Positions 44 through 7,464 of a stretch of 17,508 nucleotides of DNA are shown here, piece after piece. The notes under the pieces were generated by a model. That model had not been told where the DNA came from, made no database searches, and was given only the letters and a program-made list of their open reading frames with translations. Position 1 is the stretch's first letter, and each line of letters opens with the position of its first letter. Both the position numbers and the translations under genes were made by a program. Source of the DNA: Thermovirgaceae bacterium (lineage in GTDB: Bacteria; Synergistota; Synergistia; Synergistales; Thermovirgaceae); NCBI GenBank assembly GCA_046542505.1, contig JBKHBH010000039.1, forward strand, positions 1 to 17,508, in the 5' to 3' direction.

Positions 44-385
44 ATGCGTATTGCAATTCCGGCAGAAGGAGAGGACCTTTCCGCCCAGATATCAGGGAGG
101 TTTGCAAGAGCTCCCTGGTTTCTTTTTGTCGATCCGGAAACCGGCGAAGTCGAAGCCCTGAAGAACCCGGCAACCGCAGCTTCTCATGGCGCCGGCGCCC
201 AGGCTGTCCAGGAACTTGCCCGCCACGAGGTGTCCGTGGTGTTCGCACCCCGTGTGGGGCCGAAGGCGGCAGACGCCCTTTCAGCCGCGGGCATGACCGT
301 CTATGAGGCGGCCGACTGCACAGGCACCGAGGCCCTCGCAGCCTACAAGGCGGGGAAGCTTCCCCTGGTCCAGGAAGGAAGATAG
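44..385 (+). CDS. NifB/NifX-family (dinitrogenase FeMo-cofactor binding domain, COG1433-like) protein
   Basis: 113 aa; MRIAIP...GRFARAPWFLFVD...NPA...GAGAQAVQ...VGPKA..AL..AG family pattern; SD GAGGTG at 31-36. Confidence 0.88.
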   Translation: MRIAIPAEGEDLSAQISGRFARAPWFLFVDPETGEVEALKNPATAASHGAGAQAVQELARHEVSVVFAPRVGPKAADALSAAGMTVYEAADCTGTEALAAYKAGKLPLVQEGR

Positions 386-390
386 ACGTA

Positions 391-1242
391 ATGGCTGAAA
401 ATGCAGCGGATAAGCAGGAAAAACAGCAGCAGGAAAAAACCGGCGGGACCTGTGCCGGCATGCCTGTGAAGACGAAAAGAAACATCAAGCATGTGATTGC
501 CGTGGGAAGCGGCAAGGGGGGAGTCGGGAAAAGCACGGTTTCGGCCCTTTTGGCTGTCGGCCTGGCAAAAAAGGGTGCCAAAGTAAGCGTCCTTGATGCC
601 GACATCACCGGGCCTTCGATTCCGAAGCTTCTCGGTGTCCGGGAGGCTCCCTTCAACAGCGACTCAGGCGTTGTGCCCCCCAAGACGGGATGGCTCGGAA
701 TACGGGCCATGTCGATAAATCTGATGCTCGATGACCCGACGAAACCCGTTGTTTGGCGAGGACCTCTGATCGGGAATGTACTCAGACAGTTTTGGGAAGA
801 GGTCAACTGGGCTGATACGGAGTTTCTCATCATCGACCTTCCCCCGGGTACAGCCGATGCCGCGCTGACAGTCATGCAGACCATCGATCTCGACGGGTTG
901 CTCGTTGTCACGGCTCCCCAGGGGCTTTCAGCCCTTGTGGTTGAAAAAATGATGCACATGGCCCGGATGCTGGAAGTTCCTCTGCTGGGTCTTGTAGAGA
1001 ATATGGGGTACGCAATTTGCCCGGAGTGCGGTGCGCAATGGGAACTCTTCGGCCCGAGCCATCTGAAAGAGACCGCGGAGAAGTGGAACATACCGGTTCT
1101 TTCCGAGATCCCCGTAGACAAGGAAATTTCAATTCTGGGCGATGGCGGGCGGCTGGAACACTACGCGAAGGAAAACATTGCGGAGAATCTGGCGGAGGCG
1201 CTCATGGCGAGCCTTCCGGAAGAAGCGAAACAGCGGGGATAA
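391..1242 (+). CDS. mrp: Mrp/NBP35 (ApbC) family P-loop ATPase, Fe-S cluster carrier
   Basis: Deviant Walker A GKGGVGKST, DADITGPSIP, VVWRGP, DLPPGTAD, and GLVENM..AICPECG..ELFG (CxxC) signature. Confidence 0.93.
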   Translation: MAENAADKQEKQQQEKTGGTCAGMPVKTKRNIKHVIAVGSGKGGVGKSTVSALLAVGLAKKGAKVSVLDADITGPSIPKLLGVREAPFNSDSGVVPPKTGWLGIRAMSINLMLDDPTKPVVWRGPLIGNVLRQFWEEVNWADTEFLIIDLPPGTADAALTVMQTIDLDGLLVVTAPQGLSALVVEKMMHMARMLEVPLLGLVENMGYAICPECGAQWELFGPSHLKETAEKWNIPVLSEIPVDKEISILGDGGRLEHYAKENIAENLAEALMASLPEEAKQRG

Positions 1243-1249
1243 CCAGGCG

Positions 1250-1286
1250 AAAGGCCGGAAACCTCACGAGGTTTCCGGCCTTTTTT
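1250..1286. terminator. Bidirectional rho-independent terminator between convergent mrp and hemB-like genes
   Basis: Inverted repeat AAAGGCCGGAAACCT-CACG-AGGTTTCCGGCCTTT followed by further Ts; lies between the two stop codons. Confidence 0.9.
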
Positions 1287-2217
1287 AGCTTTCTTGCAGT
1301 AACCAGCCTGCGAGACGAACTGCGTCGTAGGTGATGACCCTGTCAGCTCCCGCCCGAAAGAGAGAGCGGTGAACCTCCACAATGGTCCTTCTCTCGTCGC
1401 ATACTCCCTTTTTTGCGGCGGTCCTTATCATCATGTATTCGCCGCTCACGAGCCATCCTGTCAAGGGGATATCGAATTTACCATGGAACTTCGCGATAAT
1501 GTCAAGGTACGCCAGAGCGGGCTTGATGATCAGTGCCGAAGTCCCTTCCCGGATGTCCGACGCGGCCTTTAAGAGGGCGCCCCCCTCGTCGGAAGGGTGG
1601 ATTTGCCCGCTGGGCATACCCCTTTCCGTAATCGATGTGGACGCGTTGAAAGGCCCGTAAAGGGCAGAGTCGAATTTTGCTCCGTAACTCAGGATCGCCC
1701 TGTCCGAAAACCCCCTGGCATCCATTGTTGTCCGAAGAAGTCGGACAAAGCCTTTTTCCAGAAAGAGGGGAATCACACCTTTCGCGCCGGCGTCCAGATG
1801 GCTTTCGGCAGTCTCCAGAAAGCGTCGACGGGTTTTCTGCGCATCGGGCGTTCCGGAAGGGTCGATGCAGAAATTGAGGCCGTTGTCGGTGGCATGAGCG
1901 AGGGAAACGTGGGTGAAAAAATCGGCCTCTTTGAAGTTTTTCGTCAGGAGCCGCAAAGCTTCCTGCACCGGACCCTCCGGATCCGAAGCGGGCGTTCCGT
2001 CCCTGTCCTTGCCCTTCTCGTAGTGGCCGAAGAGGACGAAATTCCTGACACCGACTGAAAGTGCCCTTTCGACGAAAAAAGGCACTTGATCAGGCGAAGC
2101 CCTTTCCACACCCTCGATGGTTTCAGACGGGATACGGCGTCCGTCGCCGGCCGTGACAAAAAGCGGCAGGATAAGGTGCTTTGGTGAAAGGGAAGACGAT
2201 TCCGCCCGCGCGAACAC
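1285..2217 (-). CDS. hemB: Divergent porphobilinogen synthase (delta-aminolevulinate dehydratase, HemB)-like protein; canonical activity doubtful. Start may be CTG at 2226
   Basis: LILPLFV, VLFG, SYGAKFDSALYGPF (Lys181), IIKPALAYLDII (Lys232), VSGEYMMI and RAGADRVITY match HemB; the Zn motif DxCxC...HGHCG and APSxMMDG are absent. Confidence 0.8.
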   Translation of the reverse strand: MFARAESSSLSPKHLILPLFVTAGDGRRIPSETIEGVERASPDQVPFFVERALSVGVRNFVLFGHYEKGKDRDGTPASDPEGPVQEALRLLTKNFKEADFFTHVSLAHATDNGLNFCIDPSGTPDAQKTRRRFLETAESHLDAGAKGVIPLFLEKGFVRLLRTTMDARGFSDRAILSYGAKFDSALYGPFNASTSITERGMPSGQIHPSDEGGALLKAASDIREGTSALIIKPALAYLDIIAKFHGKFDIPLTGWLVSGEYMMIRTAAKKGVCDERRTIVEVHRSLFRAGADRVITYDAVRLAGWLLQES

Positions 2218-2237
2218 TTTGCCCAGGGACGATCACC

Positions 2238-3098
2238 TCACAGAAAGTCTTCAAGCCGTTTCCGGATCGATTGTATCTCCTCGTGGAGCTCGCGAACAGG
2301 GATTCGGGTTTCAGCCACAGCGTCGACGACCGCCCGTTTGAAGGGGATCTCTCCAAGGATATCCCAGTTTTTGGCCCTGGCTTCCTCTTTGAGTTGTCGC
2401 GCGATTTTTGGCGCCAGATCGGCCTTGTTGACCACGAAGGCTGTGGGGATGCCGAACCGTGAAGTGACCTGCGAGAGACGCTCAACATCGTGAAAGGCCG
2501 CTTTTGAGGGTTCCGTCACGGCGATGGCCAGGTCTGCACCGGTGACGGCCGATATGGCGGGACATGCGATGCCGGGAGGGCCGTCGGTCAGAATGAGGGG
2601 GATATCCCTCTCGCGTGCCGCCTGAAGTGCCGACTCCCTCAGAAACTGGACGAGCTTGCCCGAATTTTCACCGCCTGGATTGAGCCGGGCATGCCACATG
2701 GGCCCCCATTGGGTCAAGCCCTCGTAGGATGTTCCCTGTCGGGTATCCACGAGTGATATGGCCTTTTCGGGGCATACACGGCGACAGACATCACATCCTT
2801 CGCAAAAGGATGTGTCTACCCGGGCCTTGTGGCCCGTCATGGAAATAGCGTCAAACCGACAGGCGGAGACACAGGCTCCGCACCCCGTGCAAAGATCCGG
2901 ATTCACCTCAGCCGTCTGCATTCCCCAAAAGGGTTGTTCACCGATGCGTTCGGGCTTCAGAAGGATCTCGAGGTCAGGGGCATCAACGTCTGCGTCGCAG
3001 ATGACCGCCTTGCCGAACGATGCGGCCAGAAGCGAGGTGAAAGTTGTTTTCCCTGTTCCCCCCTTGCCGCTGATAACAACGATTTCACGAGGCTTCAT
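2238..3098 (-). CDS. MinD-superfamily P-loop ATPase with inserted 2x[4Fe-4S] ferredoxin domain (COG1149-like)
   Basis: SGKGGTGKTT, DADVDAPDL, CTGCGACVSAC and CEGCDVCRRVCP, GENSGKLV, DGPPGIACP, VTEPS. Confidence 0.92.
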   Translation of the reverse strand: MKPREIVVISGKGGTGKTTFTSLLAASFGKAVICDADVDAPDLEILLKPERIGEQPFWGMQTAEVNPDLCTGCGACVSACRFDAISMTGHKARVDTSFCEGCDVCRRVCPEKAISLVDTRQGTSYEGLTQWGPMWHARLNPGGENSGKLVQFLRESALQAARERDIPLILTDGPPGIACPAISAVTGADLAIAVTEPSKAAFHDVERLSQVTSRFGIPTAFVVNKADLAPKIARQLKEEARAKNWDILGEIPFKRAVVDAVAETRIPVRELHEEIQSIRKRLEDFL

Positions 3099-3946
3099 CG
3101 GTCCAGCTTCCTTTCGAAATATTCCCAGACTTCCCGGAGCCCCGATTCCCAGCGGGCGTCCATCGCGGCAGGCGGAGTCCCTTCGGCGTATGCTTCGGCG
3201 ACGGCCCTTGAAAAGGGGAACTCGGCAAGAACGGGGGAGCCGTATTTCGAGGCCAGTCCCCTGATGTCCGCGGCGGCCAGGTCCGAACGGTTGATAATAA
3301 TTCCGACCGGTTTTCCGAGGTTTACCACCGCCTGTAGGGCGAGGTCAAGGTCGGCCGCGCCAAATGGAGTAGGCTCCGTCACGAGGAGCACCGCATCGGA
3401 GTGCCTGATGCCGGCGACCATGGGGCATGCGTTTCCGGGTGCACAGTCGATAACCTTGGGAACATCCATGCCGAGGACGACCTTGACGAGGTCTTCTATG
3501 ACCGGTACGGGATTTGGCAGACCCACGTTAAGGCGTCCTTCGTAAAGTTCAACGCCCCTTGCTGTGCGGCAATGCCTGATTTCGCCTATGGGCTTGTCGA
3601 TTTCCGTTATGGCGCCCTCGGGGCAGACCATGGAACAGAGACCGCATCCGTGGCAAAGGTCATTGACCTGCGGAGAGGAGTCCCCGAACATGGTCAGGGC
3701 GCCGAACATGCAGGCTGAGACACATTGGCCGCACCGGGAGCAGCGTCCGTCGTCGATGGCGGGAACCCGCAGGGAGACCAGGGAGCTTTCGAAAGGTTCC
3801 GCGTCGAGGAGAAGTCTGAGATTCGGTTCCTCGACATCAGCGTCTACGGCCAGAAGTCCCGGGACCGATGCGACAAGGGACGCGCTGACACTGCTTTTCC
3901 CCGTTCCTCCCTTGCCGCTTGCTACCGCCAGAGTCATGGAACTCAT
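3095..3946 (-). CDS. MinD-superfamily P-loop ATPase with inserted 2x[4Fe-4S] ferredoxin domain (COG1149-like), second paralog
   Basis: ASGKGGTGKSS, DADVEEPN, CSRCGQCVSAC and CHGCGLCSMVCP, DCAPGNACP, VTEPTPFG; 4-nt ATGA overlaps with both neighbours. Confidence 0.92.
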   Translation of the reverse strand: MSSMTLAVASGKGGTGKSSVSASLVASVPGLLAVDADVEEPNLRLLLDAEPFESSLVSLRVPAIDDGRCSRCGQCVSACMFGALTMFGDSSPQVNDLCHGCGLCSMVCPEGAITEIDKPIGEIRHCRTARGVELYEGRLNVGLPNPVPVIEDLVKVVLGMDVPKVIDCAPGNACPMVAGIRHSDAVLLVTEPTPFGAADLDLALQAVVNLGKPVGIIINRSDLAAADIRGLASKYGSPVLAEFPFSRAVAEAYAEGTPPAAMDARWESGLREVWEYFERKLDR

Positions 3947-4323
3947 CGTGTTTCACCGCTTTGTCCGCAGTGGTGCTCCGTGTCTTCCGACCCATGATGG
4001 CAGGCGCTGGGCCCCTGTTCGAGAACGCCGGAACAATAGTTTTTCACGGCTTCTTCAATATCGCCCGAGACGCCGATGACGGGTTCTATCCCCTGGGCGC
4101 GGAAAAGTTCCTCCGCCCTTGGGCCCATTCCTCCGGCGATAATGACGTCCACTTCGAGGCTTCCAAGCCACCGGGGCAAAACGCCTGGCGCATGACCGGG
4201 GTTCGGATGCTCCGCATGGTCGAGGATGTTTCCCTTTTTATCGACCGAATAAAGAGCGTAGAGAGGCGCATGGCCGAAATGGGGACACACTGCGCCGTTT
4301 TGAGCGGCAACGGCAATTTTCAT
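3943..4323 (-). CDS. NifB/NifX-family protein with His/Cys-rich C-terminal tail
   Basis: MKIAVA...CPHFGHAP...NPGHAPG...DVIIAGGMGPRA..LF...GI pattern; SD GGAGGTG just upstream of ATG 4323 (the ORF-track GTG at 4332 lies within the SD). Confidence 0.9.
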   Translation of the reverse strand: MKIAVAAQNGAVCPHFGHAPLYALYSVDKKGNILDHAEHPNPGHAPGVLPRWLGSLEVDVIIAGGMGPRAEELFRAQGIEPVIGVSGDIEEAVKNYCSGVLEQGPSACHHGSEDTEHHCGQSGETR

Positions 4324-4386
4324 GATTTTCACCTCCAGAGTTTTTTGTTTTCAAGGAGCTTCAGAGGGCTTTCCGGCTTGTACGGT

Positions 4387-4420
4387 CATAAAACGGGGAG
4401 AGCGATGACTCGCCCTCCCC
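4387..4420 (-). terminator. Terminator-like hairpin upstream of the minus-strand nifX-like gene
   Basis: Minus strand GGGGAGGGCGA-GTCA-TCGCTCTCCCC (11-bp stem with one G-U) followed by GTTTTATG. Confidence 0.65.
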
Positions 4421-4500
4421 TGCGCCGGGAAAAGAGAAAGTGAAGGAAGAAATCGATACAGTATCTTACCCAGGGGGATAATAACGATATCGATTCTCAA
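4388..4500 (-). ncRNA. Candidate ~110-nt small RNA or attenuated leader
   Basis: Lies between a TTGACA promoter and a terminator-like hairpin; 5' stem GAAUCGAUA/UAUCGAUUU, then a 26-nt pyrimidine tract; not matched to any family I recognise. Confidence 0.35.
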
Positions 4501-4504
4501 TAGA
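4486..4504. promoter_or_regulatory. Fur-box-like operator overlapping the predicted transcription start
   Basis: Minus strand TCTATTGAGAATCGATATC matches GATAATGATAATCATTATC at 13/19 positions; a Fur-family gene lies 3 kb away. Confidence 0.45.
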
Positions 4505-4534
4505 ATATTATCCCGAAAGGGACCTCTTTGTCAA
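4505..4534 (-). promoter_or_regulatory. Sigma70-type promoter
   Basis: Minus strand TTGACA (4534-4529), then 16 nt to GATAAT or 18 nt to TAATAT, in an AT-rich intergenic stretch. Confidence 0.7.
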
Positions 4535-4545
4535 GACTGACATTT

Positions 4546-6960
4546 TTATTTTAAAACCGGGTCGTGACTTATGCCCAGCCTGTCCGCCAGTGCCAGGTAG
4601 ACGGTGCTTGATGTGATCCGGGAAAAATTTTGCCTCTCGTTTTCCGTGATCCTCTGTGCCAGCTCGAAAAAGGCTTTTTGGCCTTTCTGGAGGTCCATGG
4701 GTTCGCCAAACCTGTCGAAGAAAGCCAGCAACCTGAGAGCCGCCTCAAGGCTTTTGGCGTCGGATGCCCTACCGGCCTCGGCGATCAGTTTTTCCAGGTG
4801 TTTCGAGGCTTCGTCTGCAAATCCCGAAAAAGGTATTTCGAGGCCCCATCTGGAGAATTCGTCAGCCCTGTCCTCGACGAGATCAAGATCCAGCCGCCTT
4901 TGTCTGAAAAGCACTTCCAGCTCCCGCGTGAGAGACAGTAGAAGAGCCGTCCTGAAAACATAAGGCACAGTCATGTCGTTTTCAGCGAGATATTCCATGA
5001 GCGGTGCATGCTTTTCCGAAAAGGTCCTGCAACTTTCGAGAAAGGGTCCGGCGGTTTTTTCAGAGACCCCCTCCAGTACGAGACGCTTTTCATCCCTGAA
5101 CAGGTGGTCCATGGTGTAATTGTGGTGTCCGAAAAACCGGTCCATTTCACGGGCGATCCCCTGGACGTATCCTTCCCGGTAGGCCGTTCTGATGCATCGG
5201 CTCATGGTTTCGTGCGTTTTGGTTTCCTTGAAGCCGCCTGTCCCGCAGAGAACATTGTGGCCGTCCAGATGGAAAGCGGCGAAGCTGATGGTTTTTCCCT
5301 CGAGAGTGACCAAGGATCTGAACCTGCACCGGCCGATCGCGAGGTTCCCCTTCCCTGTTTCAAGGATGTCCAGTTCTTCCGTTTCCACCGCGTACCGGTT
5401 TATGTTGATGGATTCGGCTTTTTCACGGAAGAGGGCAAAAATCGCATAATGGGCGGCGACGCGGAAGAGATCAACTTTGGCCGGAAGCACCATTGTTTTG
5501 TAGACCTCCGATCCGTCGGGCAGTGTCCGGGTGTTTCCAGGCGCGGATTCCAGCTTTTCGAGGAAGACTTCCTCGAGGGGTTCTTCCGTGAAAATTCCGG
5601 CCAGCTGGATGGCCCGGGCTGCATATCTCAGGACCTGGACGGTTTCGATCCTGCCGATATCTTCGAAAAACCAGGCGCAGCTTGTGAACATGAGCATTCC
5701 ATGGCGCTGCATTTCAAGAAGCGAAAGCGCCCGCCTGACGAGGCCGGGCTCCAGGCCCTGCACCAGTCTGCGTTCGAGAAAGGATTCGGCGCTTTCAGGT
5801 TTTCTTTCCAGTATGACCTGGATATATTCGTCACGCACCTTCCAGGGCGAGGCGAGCAGGTCTTTCGATTCAGTTTCAAAGATGTGATCCAGACGCTCCT
5901 TCAGCCAATTGAGGGCATCCCGCAGCGGCCCCCGCCATTTCTGGTGCCGGCTTTGTCCGTTTCCGGAACAGCCGCAGTCGGACCGCCATCGCTCGATGCC
6001 GTGAACGCAACTCCAGGAGGTGTTCTCCAAAAGGGCCACTTCCTGGACTGGTGGATCGGTATCAAGAAACTCACCATATGTTGAAAGGCGTACTTCCCGG
6101 GATTTTTCGATTCTGTCTAGGCAATAAGCGAGGGCCATTTCACCGAAATGGTGATGATGTCCGAAGGTTTCTCCGTCGGTGGCGGCGTGGACCAGCCTCG
6201 GGATTCCGTCACGGGGAGGGAACAGGGACAAGATCCGCCTGAAGAAATCTGAACCGTCGTTTAGAAGGGGGCCGAAAGCTATGTCCGCCGAAAGTGAGGC
6301 GTCATAGAAAAAAATGGTGATCGACCGGCCCGAGGGGAGCCGGCAGATCGCCGGAAGCGTCGTGTCGATGTTTTTGCCTTCCTTCTCTAGGCGGTCCTGA
6401 AGCATTTCGCCTATTCTGCGACCCTGGTGGGGCGCAAGAATGGTGAAACGGATTCCCGCGTCTGCAAGGCATTCCAGTGTCGCGATATCAGCGGCTGTCT
6501 CGGGGAGCCACATTCCTTCGCTCTTTCTGCCGAACCTGTGACGGAAGTCCGCCAGTCCCCAGAGAATCTGGTTTTTCTTGTCCCTTTCAGATGCGAGGGG
6601 AAGAATCATGTGGTTATAGACCTGGGCGATCGCCGTGCCATGCCCGCTGAAACGTGAAAGGCTCTCGGCATCAGCTTCAAGGATTTTCTCGTACACGTCG
6701 CGACGCCGGCGTTCCAGCCAGGAAAAGAGGGTCGGGCCGAAGTTGAAGCTTATCCGGCTGAAATTATTGAGCAAAAGGCGTATGCGTCCCGATTCGTCAA
6801 GGAGCCGGGCCGTTGTATTGGGTTCATAGCATTCGGCGGTGATCCTGTCGTTCCAGTCGTGAAAGGGGGCGGCGCTCTCCTGAATCTCTACCGATTCGGT
6901 CCAGGGGTTTTCCCGGGGCGGCTGGTAAAAATGGCCGTGAATGCAAACATATCGTGTCAT
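4546..6960 (-). CDS. DUF3536 domain-containing glycoside hydrolase family 57 protein
   Basis: 804 aa; HGHFYQPPRENPW, HDWNDRITAECY, YNHMILPL, GMWLPET (nucleophile Glu), ATDGETFGHH (acid/base Asp), SWSCVHGIERW, MFTSCAWFF. Confidence 0.9.
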   Translation of the reverse strand: MTRYVCIHGHFYQPPRENPWTESVEIQESAAPFHDWNDRITAECYEPNTTARLLDESGRIRLLLNNFSRISFNFGPTLFSWLERRRRDVYEKILEADAESLSRFSGHGTAIAQVYNHMILPLASERDKKNQILWGLADFRHRFGRKSEGMWLPETAADIATLECLADAGIRFTILAPHQGRRIGEMLQDRLEKEGKNIDTTLPAICRLPSGRSITIFFYDASLSADIAFGPLLNDGSDFFRRILSLFPPRDGIPRLVHAATDGETFGHHHHFGEMALAYCLDRIEKSREVRLSTYGEFLDTDPPVQEVALLENTSWSCVHGIERWRSDCGCSGNGQSRHQKWRGPLRDALNWLKERLDHIFETESKDLLASPWKVRDEYIQVILERKPESAESFLERRLVQGLEPGLVRRALSLLEMQRHGMLMFTSCAWFFEDIGRIETVQVLRYAARAIQLAGIFTEEPLEEVFLEKLESAPGNTRTLPDGSEVYKTMVLPAKVDLFRVAAHYAIFALFREKAESININRYAVETEELDILETGKGNLAIGRCRFRSLVTLEGKTISFAAFHLDGHNVLCGTGGFKETKTHETMSRCIRTAYREGYVQGIAREMDRFFGHHNYTMDHLFRDEKRLVLEGVSEKTAGPFLESCRTFSEKHAPLMEYLAENDMTVPYVFRTALLLSLTRELEVLFRQRRLDLDLVEDRADEFSRWGLEIPFSGFADEASKHLEKLIAEAGRASDAKSLEAALRLLAFFDRFGEPMDLQKGQKAFFELAQRITENERQNFSRITSSTVYLALADRLGISHDPVLK

Positions 6961-7083: not shown

Positions 7084-7464
7084 CTATTCCCTTGTGATGA
7101 TGGCAGTGAAGGAGCCCCTGTCGGATCCTTCAGAGGATTCCCACTTCCCGATGAAGCGGTTCATGAAATCGATGGAGCCGAAAAACCGCAGGGGTTTTCC
7201 TGTGGTCGTAAACTCGCAGGTGCCGTCAAAGCTGCAGTTCCCGCTTACGTCGAGATCCTCGTAAGTGACGTTCGAATGAGCGACACCGGTGATGACCCCG
7301 TCGGGGGAGATGGCCAGCCTGAGGGCTCCGTAATCGTCTCCGATGAAAGTACCGAGATAGTTCCCGCTCATGCGCTCGGGAATCGAAGCCGCCGATGCGG
7401 ATGATCCGAAAAGGGCGGTCACGGCGAAGAGAGCAATAATGATCACGCTGATTTCTTTTCTCAT
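7084..7464 (-). CDS. Hypothetical secreted protein (Sec signal peptide, Gly/aromatic-rich, probably beta-rich)
   Basis: MRKE + hydrophobic stretch + ASA cleavage motif; SD GAGGTG upstream; fits between fur and the GH57 gene. Confidence 0.8.
   Translation of the reverse strand: MRKEISVIIIALFAVTALFGSSASAASIPERMSGNYLGTFIGDDYGALRLAISPDGVITGVAHSNVTYEDLDVSGNCSFDGTCEFTTTGKPLRFFGSIDFMNRFIGKWESSEGSDRGSFTAIITRE

Follow-up and report, generated by a model that had tools for sequence, protein, structure and literature searches.

Few known enzymes are as conserved as HemB, the porphobilinogen synthase (PBGS) of the ALAD family, and its active site is described in textbooks. A 17,508-nt stretch of DNA from a Thermovirgaceae bacterium (contig JBKHBH010000039.1; hereafter the window) encodes a HemB-like protein, HemBL, whose pocket departs from that textbook site. 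An earlier reading of the letters alone (hereafter the original prediction) had described a remodeled HemB homolog that kept one substrate half-site (the P-site) and had lost the other (the A-site) together with the zinc site. What does such a protein do? On balance, we favor the view that HemBL is a repurposed, selected protein that is not a PBGS, that has a working pocket, and that is functionally tied to the orange protein (ORP)-type locus in which its gene lies.

The Gene, Fold, and Pocket of HemBL

HemBL is encoded on the minus strand at 1285..2217, is 310 aa long, and is the product of the last gene of a minus-strand operon. Of the span 1285..2226 given in the original prediction, the lower boundary stands but the upper one does not: position 2226 takes in 9 nt upstream of the GTG that is the sole canonical start (there is an in-frame TGA at 2233-2235), and the true end is 2217. 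The claim of an intact, full-length frame is borne out by a single 310-aa open reading frame that matches Pfam ALAD (PF00490) over nearly its whole length (232.7 bits; cut-off 24.6). Canonical HemB proteins of Synergistales reach 431-436 bits with that profile versus 232 for HemBL, and the NCBIfam PBGS equivalog (NF006762) scored HemBL at 225.9 bits, under its cut-off of 297. An AlphaFold2 model built from an 80-row alignment has a mean predicted local distance difference test score (pLDDT) of 95.2 and a predicted template-modeling score (pTM) of 0.93, with lower pLDDT only at the first 10 residues and in the active-site lid (residues 190-210, ~80). Foldseek superposed this model on solved PBGS structures from Pseudomonas, human, Toxoplasma, Chlorobium, Pyrobaculum, E. 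coli, and yeast, with template-modeling (TM) scores of 0.90-0.93 and root-mean-square deviations of 1.5-2.3 Å. Structure modeling had been suggested at the outset as a check, and by this model the ALAD TIM-barrel fold of HemBL is intact.

Pocket residues were mapped through a HMMER alignment to mouse ALAD (2z0i), and we use human numbering for the canonical enzyme. In the available part of PMC7725820, K252 is the P-side Schiff-base lysine, zinc is the Lewis acid for the A-side 5-aminolevulinic acid (ALA), and C122, C124, and C132 are metal or cluster ligands. The contacts of ALA and porphobilinogen (PBG) in human ALAD, as given in the available part of PMC9631992, are Tyr196, Lys199, Tyr205, Phe208, Arg209, Arg221, Lys252, Tyr276, and zinc. 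HemBL keeps Y178, K181, Y187, F190, and K232 among these contacts, whereas the two arginines and the metal site are gone; at the position of Y276, HemBL proteins have W or Y. The two Schiff-base lysines, K181 (in SYGAKF; K199 in human) at 1675-1677 and K232 (in IIKP; K252) at 1522-1524, bound the segment 1522..1677 on the minus strand and are found in all 12 members of the HemBL clade described below. The same holds for S258 (in VSGEY; S279) and Y297 (in ITY; Y318), whose human equivalents we take to be the P-side carboxylate ligands, so that the retention of both lysines and of the P-side Ser and Tyr, read by eye in a single protein, extends to the whole clade. Y178, Y187, and F190 are likewise invariant in 12/12, and Q205 (Q225) is also kept. 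The lysines and the aromatic residues around them are invariant, and in principle a lysine could form the imine with a carbonyl substrate by which class I (Schiff-base) aldolase-type TIM-barrel enzymes work.

The rest of the pocket reads differently in an alignment of 237 near-full-length ALAD members, i.e., 10 from the HemBL clade and 227 others. In the former metal-binding loop THVSLAHATDNGLNFC (residues 102-117; 1867..1914, minus strand) the Cys or Asp ligands are replaced: H103 takes the place of D120, and S105, A107, and N115 take those of C122, C124, and C132. The three metal-ligand columns of the 227 others show the two known metal classes (C 186/A 31; C 175/D 41; C 186/D 32). In the HemBL clade these columns are S/A/T, A/S/V, and N, and neither class fits, in keeping with the original prediction of a motif that is neither three-Cys nor Asp-rich. 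Where canonical enzymes have VAPSDMMDG(R), HemBL has VIPLFLEKG (residues 148-156; 1750..1776, minus strand), a replacement that the original prediction had also picked out; L151, F152, and K155 are the equivalents of S168, D169, and D172. Across the clade, position 151 is L or F, and position 155 is K, S, R, Q, or P. The active-site lid YGPFNASTSITERGMPSGQI (residues 187-206; 1600..1659, minus strand) is 2 aa shorter than the canonical lid and lacks both A-side arginines, as had been proposed. R209 is replaced by N191 in all 12 members, and the R221 column is M or a gap (M201 in the window protein, an approximate assignment within a gapped lid alignment). The 227 others are nearly uniform at the same places, with D in 218 at D120, S in 224 at S168, D in 223 at D172, and R in 221 at R209, which sets the HemBL substitutions well apart from chance variation. 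Two further readings of the original prediction were confirmed. K217 replaces a Glu that is present in 206 of 218 others and that we take to be an allosteric-Mg ligand of PBGS, and the N-terminal arm (RxRRLR in the family consensus) is missing from HemBL in the alignment to the family.

Two broader claims hold in part. The P-site, described as intact, keeps its lysine and its carboxylate ligands, but the D120 and S168 positions are replaced (H103 and L/F151). We take D120, S168, and D172 to be ligands of the amino group in the human enzyme, the first two on the P-side. With the equivalents of those two replaced, the ligand may now be something other than ALA. The zinc site, described as lost, has indeed lost its Cys and Asp ligands, but H103, H108, N115, and C117 are invariant across all 12 clade members, and judged from the aligned sequences the site looks rebuilt, not simply lost. 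N191 is just as invariant. Overall, 69 of 295 positions (23%) are invariant over the 12 HemBL proteins, compared with 10 of 19 positions in the pocket, which are the seven kept from the canonical enzyme (Y178, K181, Y187, F190, K232, S258, and Y297) plus the new H103, N115, and N191. Sixteen residues (S78, H103, H108, N115, C117, R132, F133, L153, G179, N191, S193, T194, D210, K217, H283, and D298) are invariant or nearly so in the 12 and occur in <10% of 218 others.

Descent and Selection

How widespread is this remodeled form? A word-indexed search of 5.8 billion protein sequences returned 513 matches at E <= 1e-10. Identity to HemBL is 61-75% in seven of these, among them one that NCBI assigns to a Thermovirgaceae bacterium, and 49-50% in two; all others are canonical and <=43% identical. 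An exhaustive HMMER scan of 1.84 billion cluster representatives found only P0003 (75%) and P0010 (50%) above 41% identity. Matches in the Protein Atlas were to ALAD clusters only, the top cluster having 54 members, mostly from Synergistota. Among 121 sampled genomes of the order, matches of 65-75% identity were confined to the window's genus, where all five other genomes have one. Two genomes from two other genera of the same family (G051 and G045) encode 40%-identical proteins with the same remodeled motifs. A contig search with P0010 gave only one 35%-identical locus among genomes (L030), and of three metagenome loci only one (L031) encodes a HemBL.

We placed these proteins in a maximum-likelihood tree of 65 rows chosen by hand (every clade member, nine proteins from the same order, 16 selected canonical proteins, and 30 drawn at random), from a quick IQ-TREE search with support from the Shimodaira-Hasegawa-like approximate likelihood ratio test (SH-aLRT) only. 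In this tree the 11 HemBL rows group together as a single clade (SH-aLRT 100), and the stem that leads to them is long (1.13). This clade lies inside a 23-row group (support 99) that also holds nine canonical Synergistales HemB proteins and three unnamed canonical proteins. HemBL hence derives from the lineage's own hemB and not from a foreign gene. Within the clade there are two subclades, one made up of the window's genus and the other of P0010 and P0011 with the G051 and G045 proteins (support 96). The suggestion that conserved orthologs with these substitutions might form a clade is therefore upheld, with 12 proteins in all. Since the changes are common to subclades that are only 40-50% identical and have been fixed since, they point to a single remodeling that was then maintained.

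Two ALAD proteins from unrelated metagenome sources are degenerate in other ways: in P0158 the metal site is gone and the two lysines are replaced by R and E, whereas P0141 is without the cysteines and the first of the lid arginines. Because the two differ in what they have lost, remodeled HemB-like proteins may have arisen more than once.

Ratios of nonsynonymous to synonymous substitution rates (dN/dS) were estimated within the genus by the Nei-Gojobori method, several saturated pairs giving no estimate. For HemBL, the unsaturated pairs gave 0.185-0.27 (G000-G092, 0.20; G000-G104, 0.185; G092-G104, 0.27) and more distant pairs 0.13-0.14. The operon neighbors gave 0.035-0.073 (Mrp), 0.042-0.085 and 0.061-0.109 (the two ATPases), and 0.062-0.206 (Nitro_FeMo-Co). 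HemBL is under purifying selection that is more relaxed than that on its neighbors. The original prediction had named a lack of conserved orthologs and a dN/dS near 1 as the marks of a decaying gene; we found conserved orthologs and a dN/dS of 0.13-0.27, far below 1. All seven full-length copies in genomes of the family have intact frames. A flag of one TGA inside the G092 and G104 matches was considered as a gene break. For G092 this was rejected, since the TGA is the terminal stop of an intact frame; the G104 copy was aligned by tblastn over residues 1-306.

Tetrapyrrole Pathway Genes

Does HemBL still have a pathway to serve? The genomes of the order and family are a sample and partly incomplete, so we report pathway genes as not found rather than absent. 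In the window genome (2.14 Mb in 142 contigs, 93.5% complete), HemBL is the sole ALAD-family gene; a separate canonical hemB, for which the original prediction had advised a search, was not found there. HemC, GlutR_N, and HemD had no match in this genome, CbiC was not found in it, and no protein in it passed the cut-off for HemL (best 170 versus 527.3 bits). The only match to TP_methylase in the genome is one 284-aa frame, which need not be a tetrapyrrole methylase because every control genome matches that family. Nor did a profile scan of the window proteins give any other hem gene, just as the original prediction had stated for the window.

The pattern extends to the family, in which HemC was found in 0 of 19 genomes, two of them 99% complete (one of these in a single contig). 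In other families of the order, genomes with HemC versus ALAD numbered 18 versus 17 of 23 (f3), 11 versus 11 of 23 (f4), 3 versus 3 of 8 (f5), 3 versus 3 of 3 (f8), and 21 versus 19 of 23 (f10), and four families had 0 versus 0. In the order sample the two tallies thus agree closely from family to family, the one exception being the window's own family, with ALAD-like proteins in 8 of 18 genomes and HemC in 0 of 18. With hemA, hemL, hemC, hemD, and cbiC not found in the genome and HemC not found in the family, the original prediction of a remodeled homolog outside PBG supply is supported, and HemBL almost certainly does not feed tetrapyrrole synthesis.

The ORP-Type Locus

What HemBL has for neighbors instead is an ORP-type metallocluster locus, and this is the strongest clue that its context gives. 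Four tightly packed minus-strand genes are ordered Nitro_FeMo-Co, ATPase, ATPase, HemBL. The first (3943..4332) encodes a single-domain Nitro_FeMo-Co protein (Orp8/orange-protein-like; Pfam, 77.5 bits) that also matches the C-terminal domain of MrpORP (98.3 bits). The next two, MinDFer_A (3095..3946) and MinDFer_B (2238..3098), encode MinD/CbiA-type P-loop ATPases that are Orp3/Orp4-like, each with an inserted domain of two [4Fe-4S] motifs (a ferredoxin domain in MinDFer_B); the MinDFer_B stop lies 20 nt before the HemBL start. Convergent with HemBL, on the plus strand, is a gene for an Mrp/NBP35 (NUBPL-type) Fe-S carrier ATPase (391..1242; Pfam ParA/NUBPL, 281 bits) that corresponds to the N-terminal part of MrpORP; it scored 286.9 bits against NCBIfam MrpORP, under the cut-off of 450. 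Directly upstream of it is a second single-domain Nitro_FeMo-Co gene (44..385, plus strand; Pfam, 72.1 bits; 57% identical to its L031 equivalent). By sequence, this pair looks like a split MrpORP. The two are separate adjacent genes, Nitro_FeMo-Co first, both in the window and in L031 (3402-4602).

The same gene order with a convergent Mrp occurs in four other genomes of the genus. It recurs in metagenome contig L031, where the HemBL (P0010) is 50% identical and the gap between ATPase and HemBL is 1 nt; the ORP proteins of L031 share only 55-65% identity with their counterparts in the window, G051, and G045. Since both deep subclades thus include members linked to ORP genes, the simplest account is that HemBL was in this locus before the two diverged. 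We also considered whether this position is a leftover of an ancestral hem operon beside ORP genes, and rejected it: ORP genes had matches in 0 of 12 canonical Synergistales hemB loci, and the three of these that were scanned with Pfam show hemL-like neighbors. Since canonical hemB in Synergistales adjoins hemL-like and not ORP genes, the ORP position is derived. A complex prediction for HemBL with the two ATPases, run without controls, scored 0.00 and has no bearing on binding either way.

In Desulfovibrio vulgaris Hildenborough, the ORP complex comprises Orp3, Orp4, Orp5, Orp8, and Orp9/MrpORP, and the function of the cluster is given as "putatively involved in cell division" and Fe-S handling, according to the available part of PMC6345978. 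The genes around HemBL are of the types described there: a pair of MinD-like ATPases, each with two [4Fe-4S] motifs, a Nitro_FeMo-Co protein of a single domain, and an Mrp/NBP35 carrier that has a Nitro_FeMo-Co partner. The gene that comes after the ATPase pair is HemBL in the window and orp5 in the D. vulgaris numbering DVU2103-2105 (same part of PMC6345978). The loci also differ: the operons are convergent here and divergent in D. vulgaris, and MrpORP is split here and under its cut-off. No HemB-like member of the ORP complex is described in the available part of that paper. Our searches of the PMC open-access subset and of bioRxiv gave no description of a remodeled HemB clade or of a HemB-like gene in an ORP locus. 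Where databases give these proteins a name, it is "porphobilinogen synthase."

Possible Roles and Alternative Explanations

How would a hemB come to serve such a locus? In the scheme we propose, a Thermovirgaceae-like family would have lost tetrapyrrole (heme/B12 ring) synthesis altogether but kept its Synergistales hemB, which was repurposed and has probably taken on a new role. HemBL would no longer condense two ALA molecules to porphobilinogen. K232, and perhaps also K181, may still form a Schiff base with a 4-oxo-acid-like ligand, the carboxylate of which would sit on S258 and Y297. The rebuilt half-site has given up two positive charges (R209 and R221) and the acidic or polar D120, S168, and D172; two His, two Asn, Cys, Ser, Thr, and hydrophobic residues are new in it. 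Being less charged, it might accept a neutral carbonyl partner, or a metal or metal-sulfur species at His/His/Cys. HemBL could then be an accessory enzyme or a ligand-holding subunit of an ORP-like metallocluster system. In its most specific form, which we offer tentatively and consider unlikely as it stands, HemBL would be the small-molecule enzyme of ORP-type metallocluster assembly, one that, by its lysine Schiff-base chemistry and the rebuilt His/His/Asn/Cys half-site, makes or holds a keto-acid-derived ligand for a metal-sulfur cofactor, or docks that cofactor. NifV, which supplies homocitrate to FeMo-co, is a loose comparison for a ligand-making HemBL. The ALAD fold has been tied to Fe-S delivery in human ALAD, a [4Fe-4S] protein whose cluster needs C122, C124, and C132 among other residues (available part of PMC7725820), and HemBL lies between genes for an Fe-S carrier and an Fe-S ATPase. 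Unlike the human enzyme, HemBL has none of these three cysteines; C117 is its only clade-invariant Cys, and the window protein has one further Cys.

Several observations weigh against a selected HemBL that is tied to the ORP locus. The gene evolves two to four times faster than most of its operon neighbors. It had no match in 10 of 19 genomes of the family. In G029, which is complete and the only single-contig genome of the genus, an IS3-type element with a 303-aa transposase frame and a 118-aa upstream frame interrupts HemBL (L023, C1 9446-11326) past about residue 195; the 3' half of HemBL and Mrp were not found in the 18-kb stretch examined. The G037 copy (L043, C123 2763-3236) has an in-frame deletion of 28 aa relative to its 70%-identical G051 relative and ends at a contig edge; it could be a decaying gene or an assembly artifact. 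In G051 and G045, HemBL lies outside the ORP locus, where the ATPase and Mrp genes abut, so the link between HemBL and ORP is not universal. The loss of metal ligands does not by itself prove a loss of activity, because metal-independent PBGS are known. Finally, seven of the eight sequences of the window's genus-level clade have a Lys or Arg two residues before the R221 equivalent, the assignment of which is approximate in the gapped lid alignment. With two relatives that carry HemBL elsewhere, two damaged copies, and ten family genomes without a match, we regard HemBL as accessory, dispensable, and repeatedly lost.

These same observations feed two of the alternatives. HemBL could be an ORP-independent Schiff-base enzyme of amino- or keto-acid catabolism, acting on an oxo-acid from an omega-aminotransferase and an imported substrate, with its place in the ORP locus accidental. 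We consider this doubtful. In its favor, HemBL of G051 (L028, 1849-13990) and G045 (L029) is monocistronic and lies between a gene for an AbrB-type membrane protein and a divergent RpiR/SIS regulator. Beyond the regulator come genes for a TAXI-TRAP transporter and a class-III aminotransferase, the best match of which is PRK06917/PRK07483-type and not HemL. Synergistota are amino-acid fermenters, and the retained P-side pocket suits a 4-oxo-carboxylate. In the window genome, however, the RpiR-aminotransferase-TAXI cluster is on another contig, where it adjoins ATP-binding cassette (ABC) transporter genes (a PBP_like_2 binding protein, a permease, and an ATPase) and not HemBL, and the ORP position is found in both deep subclades with the tight spacing noted above (20 nt and 1 nt). 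Improbable, in our judgment, is a slowly decaying hemB relic without present function, kept by chance or by polar effects in the operon. The faster evolution, the two damaged copies, the family genomes without a match, and a Pfam score about half that of canonical relatives would all fit a relic. A dN/dS of 0.13-0.27, intact frames in every full-length copy of the family, 16 derived residues common to subclades 40-50% identical, retained pocket residues that are all invariant, and a confident AlphaFold2 model would not.

The other two alternatives concern the pocket itself, and we give each of them a still smaller chance. It is quite improbable that HemBL is a non-catalytic structural subunit with a dead pocket, its lysines being kept only for folding. 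HemBL has lost the N-terminal arm and the allosteric site through which PBGS oligomers are controlled, and its assembly behavior must therefore differ; moreover, other ALAD-family proteins, such as P0158, lack even the lysines. Against such a scaffold, conservation is concentrated in the pocket, and the residues gained there (two His, two Asn, Cys, Ser, and Thr) are polar and could act as ligands. The least credible alternative, with only a very slight chance of being right, is a working PBGS of an unusual metal-free type. HemBL resembles canonical PBGS in its TIM-barrel, in ~30-45% identity, in both lysines, in the P-side Ser and Tyr, and in the pocket Tyr/Tyr/Phe and Q205. Metal-independent PBGS exist, e.g., in Rhodobacter capsulatus, and Zn-independent HemB paralogs reportedly occur in Zur regulons; like these, HemBL is without the three-Cys zinc site. 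The HemB variants without the three Cys, however, are active PBGS in organisms with the full pathway, and they retain the Asp/Ser motif as well as the arginines that bind substrate. HemBL lacks all of this, the equivalents of R209, R221, D120, S168, and D172 all being replaced; it also differs from canonical PBGS in lacking the metal site, the APSDMMDGR motif, the allosteric Glu, and the RRLR arm. In addition, its score is under the NCBIfam equivalog cut-off, and no enzyme that makes ALA or uses PBG was found in the window genome or the 19 family genomes.

Flanking Features and Further Neighbors

Between the convergent Mrp and HemBL genes is a 16-bp GC-rich hairpin (1249..1284; pattern scan only), likely a bidirectional terminator. 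Upstream of the operon, a match to a sigma-70-like promoter consensus, TTGACA-16-GATAAT (11/12), lies at 4507..4534 on the minus strand; in D. vulgaris, by comparison, control is by a sigma-54 promoter and OrpR. It falls in a 213-nt leader (4333-4545) between the end of a GH57 gene and the ORP-type operon. Downstream of the promoter match and before the first gene, the leader has a further hairpin (4420-4395) that may be a GH57 terminator or an attenuator. A scan of the whole window with Rfam at gathering thresholds gave no matches. Sequencing-run searches returned six DNA runs from two studies and no RNA run among the matches.

The GH57 gene (4546-6960, minus strand) encodes an 804-aa protein with GH57 and DUF3536 and lies between the ORP-type operon and a small conserved gene. 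G057 and G092 have it at the corresponding position, G104 gave only a 58-residue remnant match, and no match was seen in G029 or G096. The small gene (7084-7464, minus strand) encodes a 126-aa protein with a hydrophobic N-terminus and without a Pfam match, found at the same place and with 73-86% identity in all five other genomes of the genus. On the other side of HemBL in G051 and G045, the AbrB-type membrane protein gene is accompanied by genes for MsrB, a 593-aa B12-binding-domain protein, and a hydantoinase-like protein.

Significance

HemBL is mainly of interest as a case of repurposing and as a handle on ORP-type loci. Here is a natural clade in which half of the HemB site was rebuilt and then held constant, in organisms without a use for porphobilinogen. 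It is a clean case of an enzyme repurposed once its pathway had been lost, and it serves as a natural experiment on the uses of the ALAD fold beyond the Knorr-type pyrrole condensation. For annotation, the automatic name "porphobilinogen synthase" is wrong for HemBL, and reconstructions of Synergistota metabolism should not count HemBL as a heme or B12 step. The nesting of HemBL in an ORP-type locus is a testable lead into a gene cluster that is widespread in anaerobes. If HemBL does prove to be a ligand enzyme of the ORP system, it would be the first chemical handle on this enigmatic, anaerobe-wide system.

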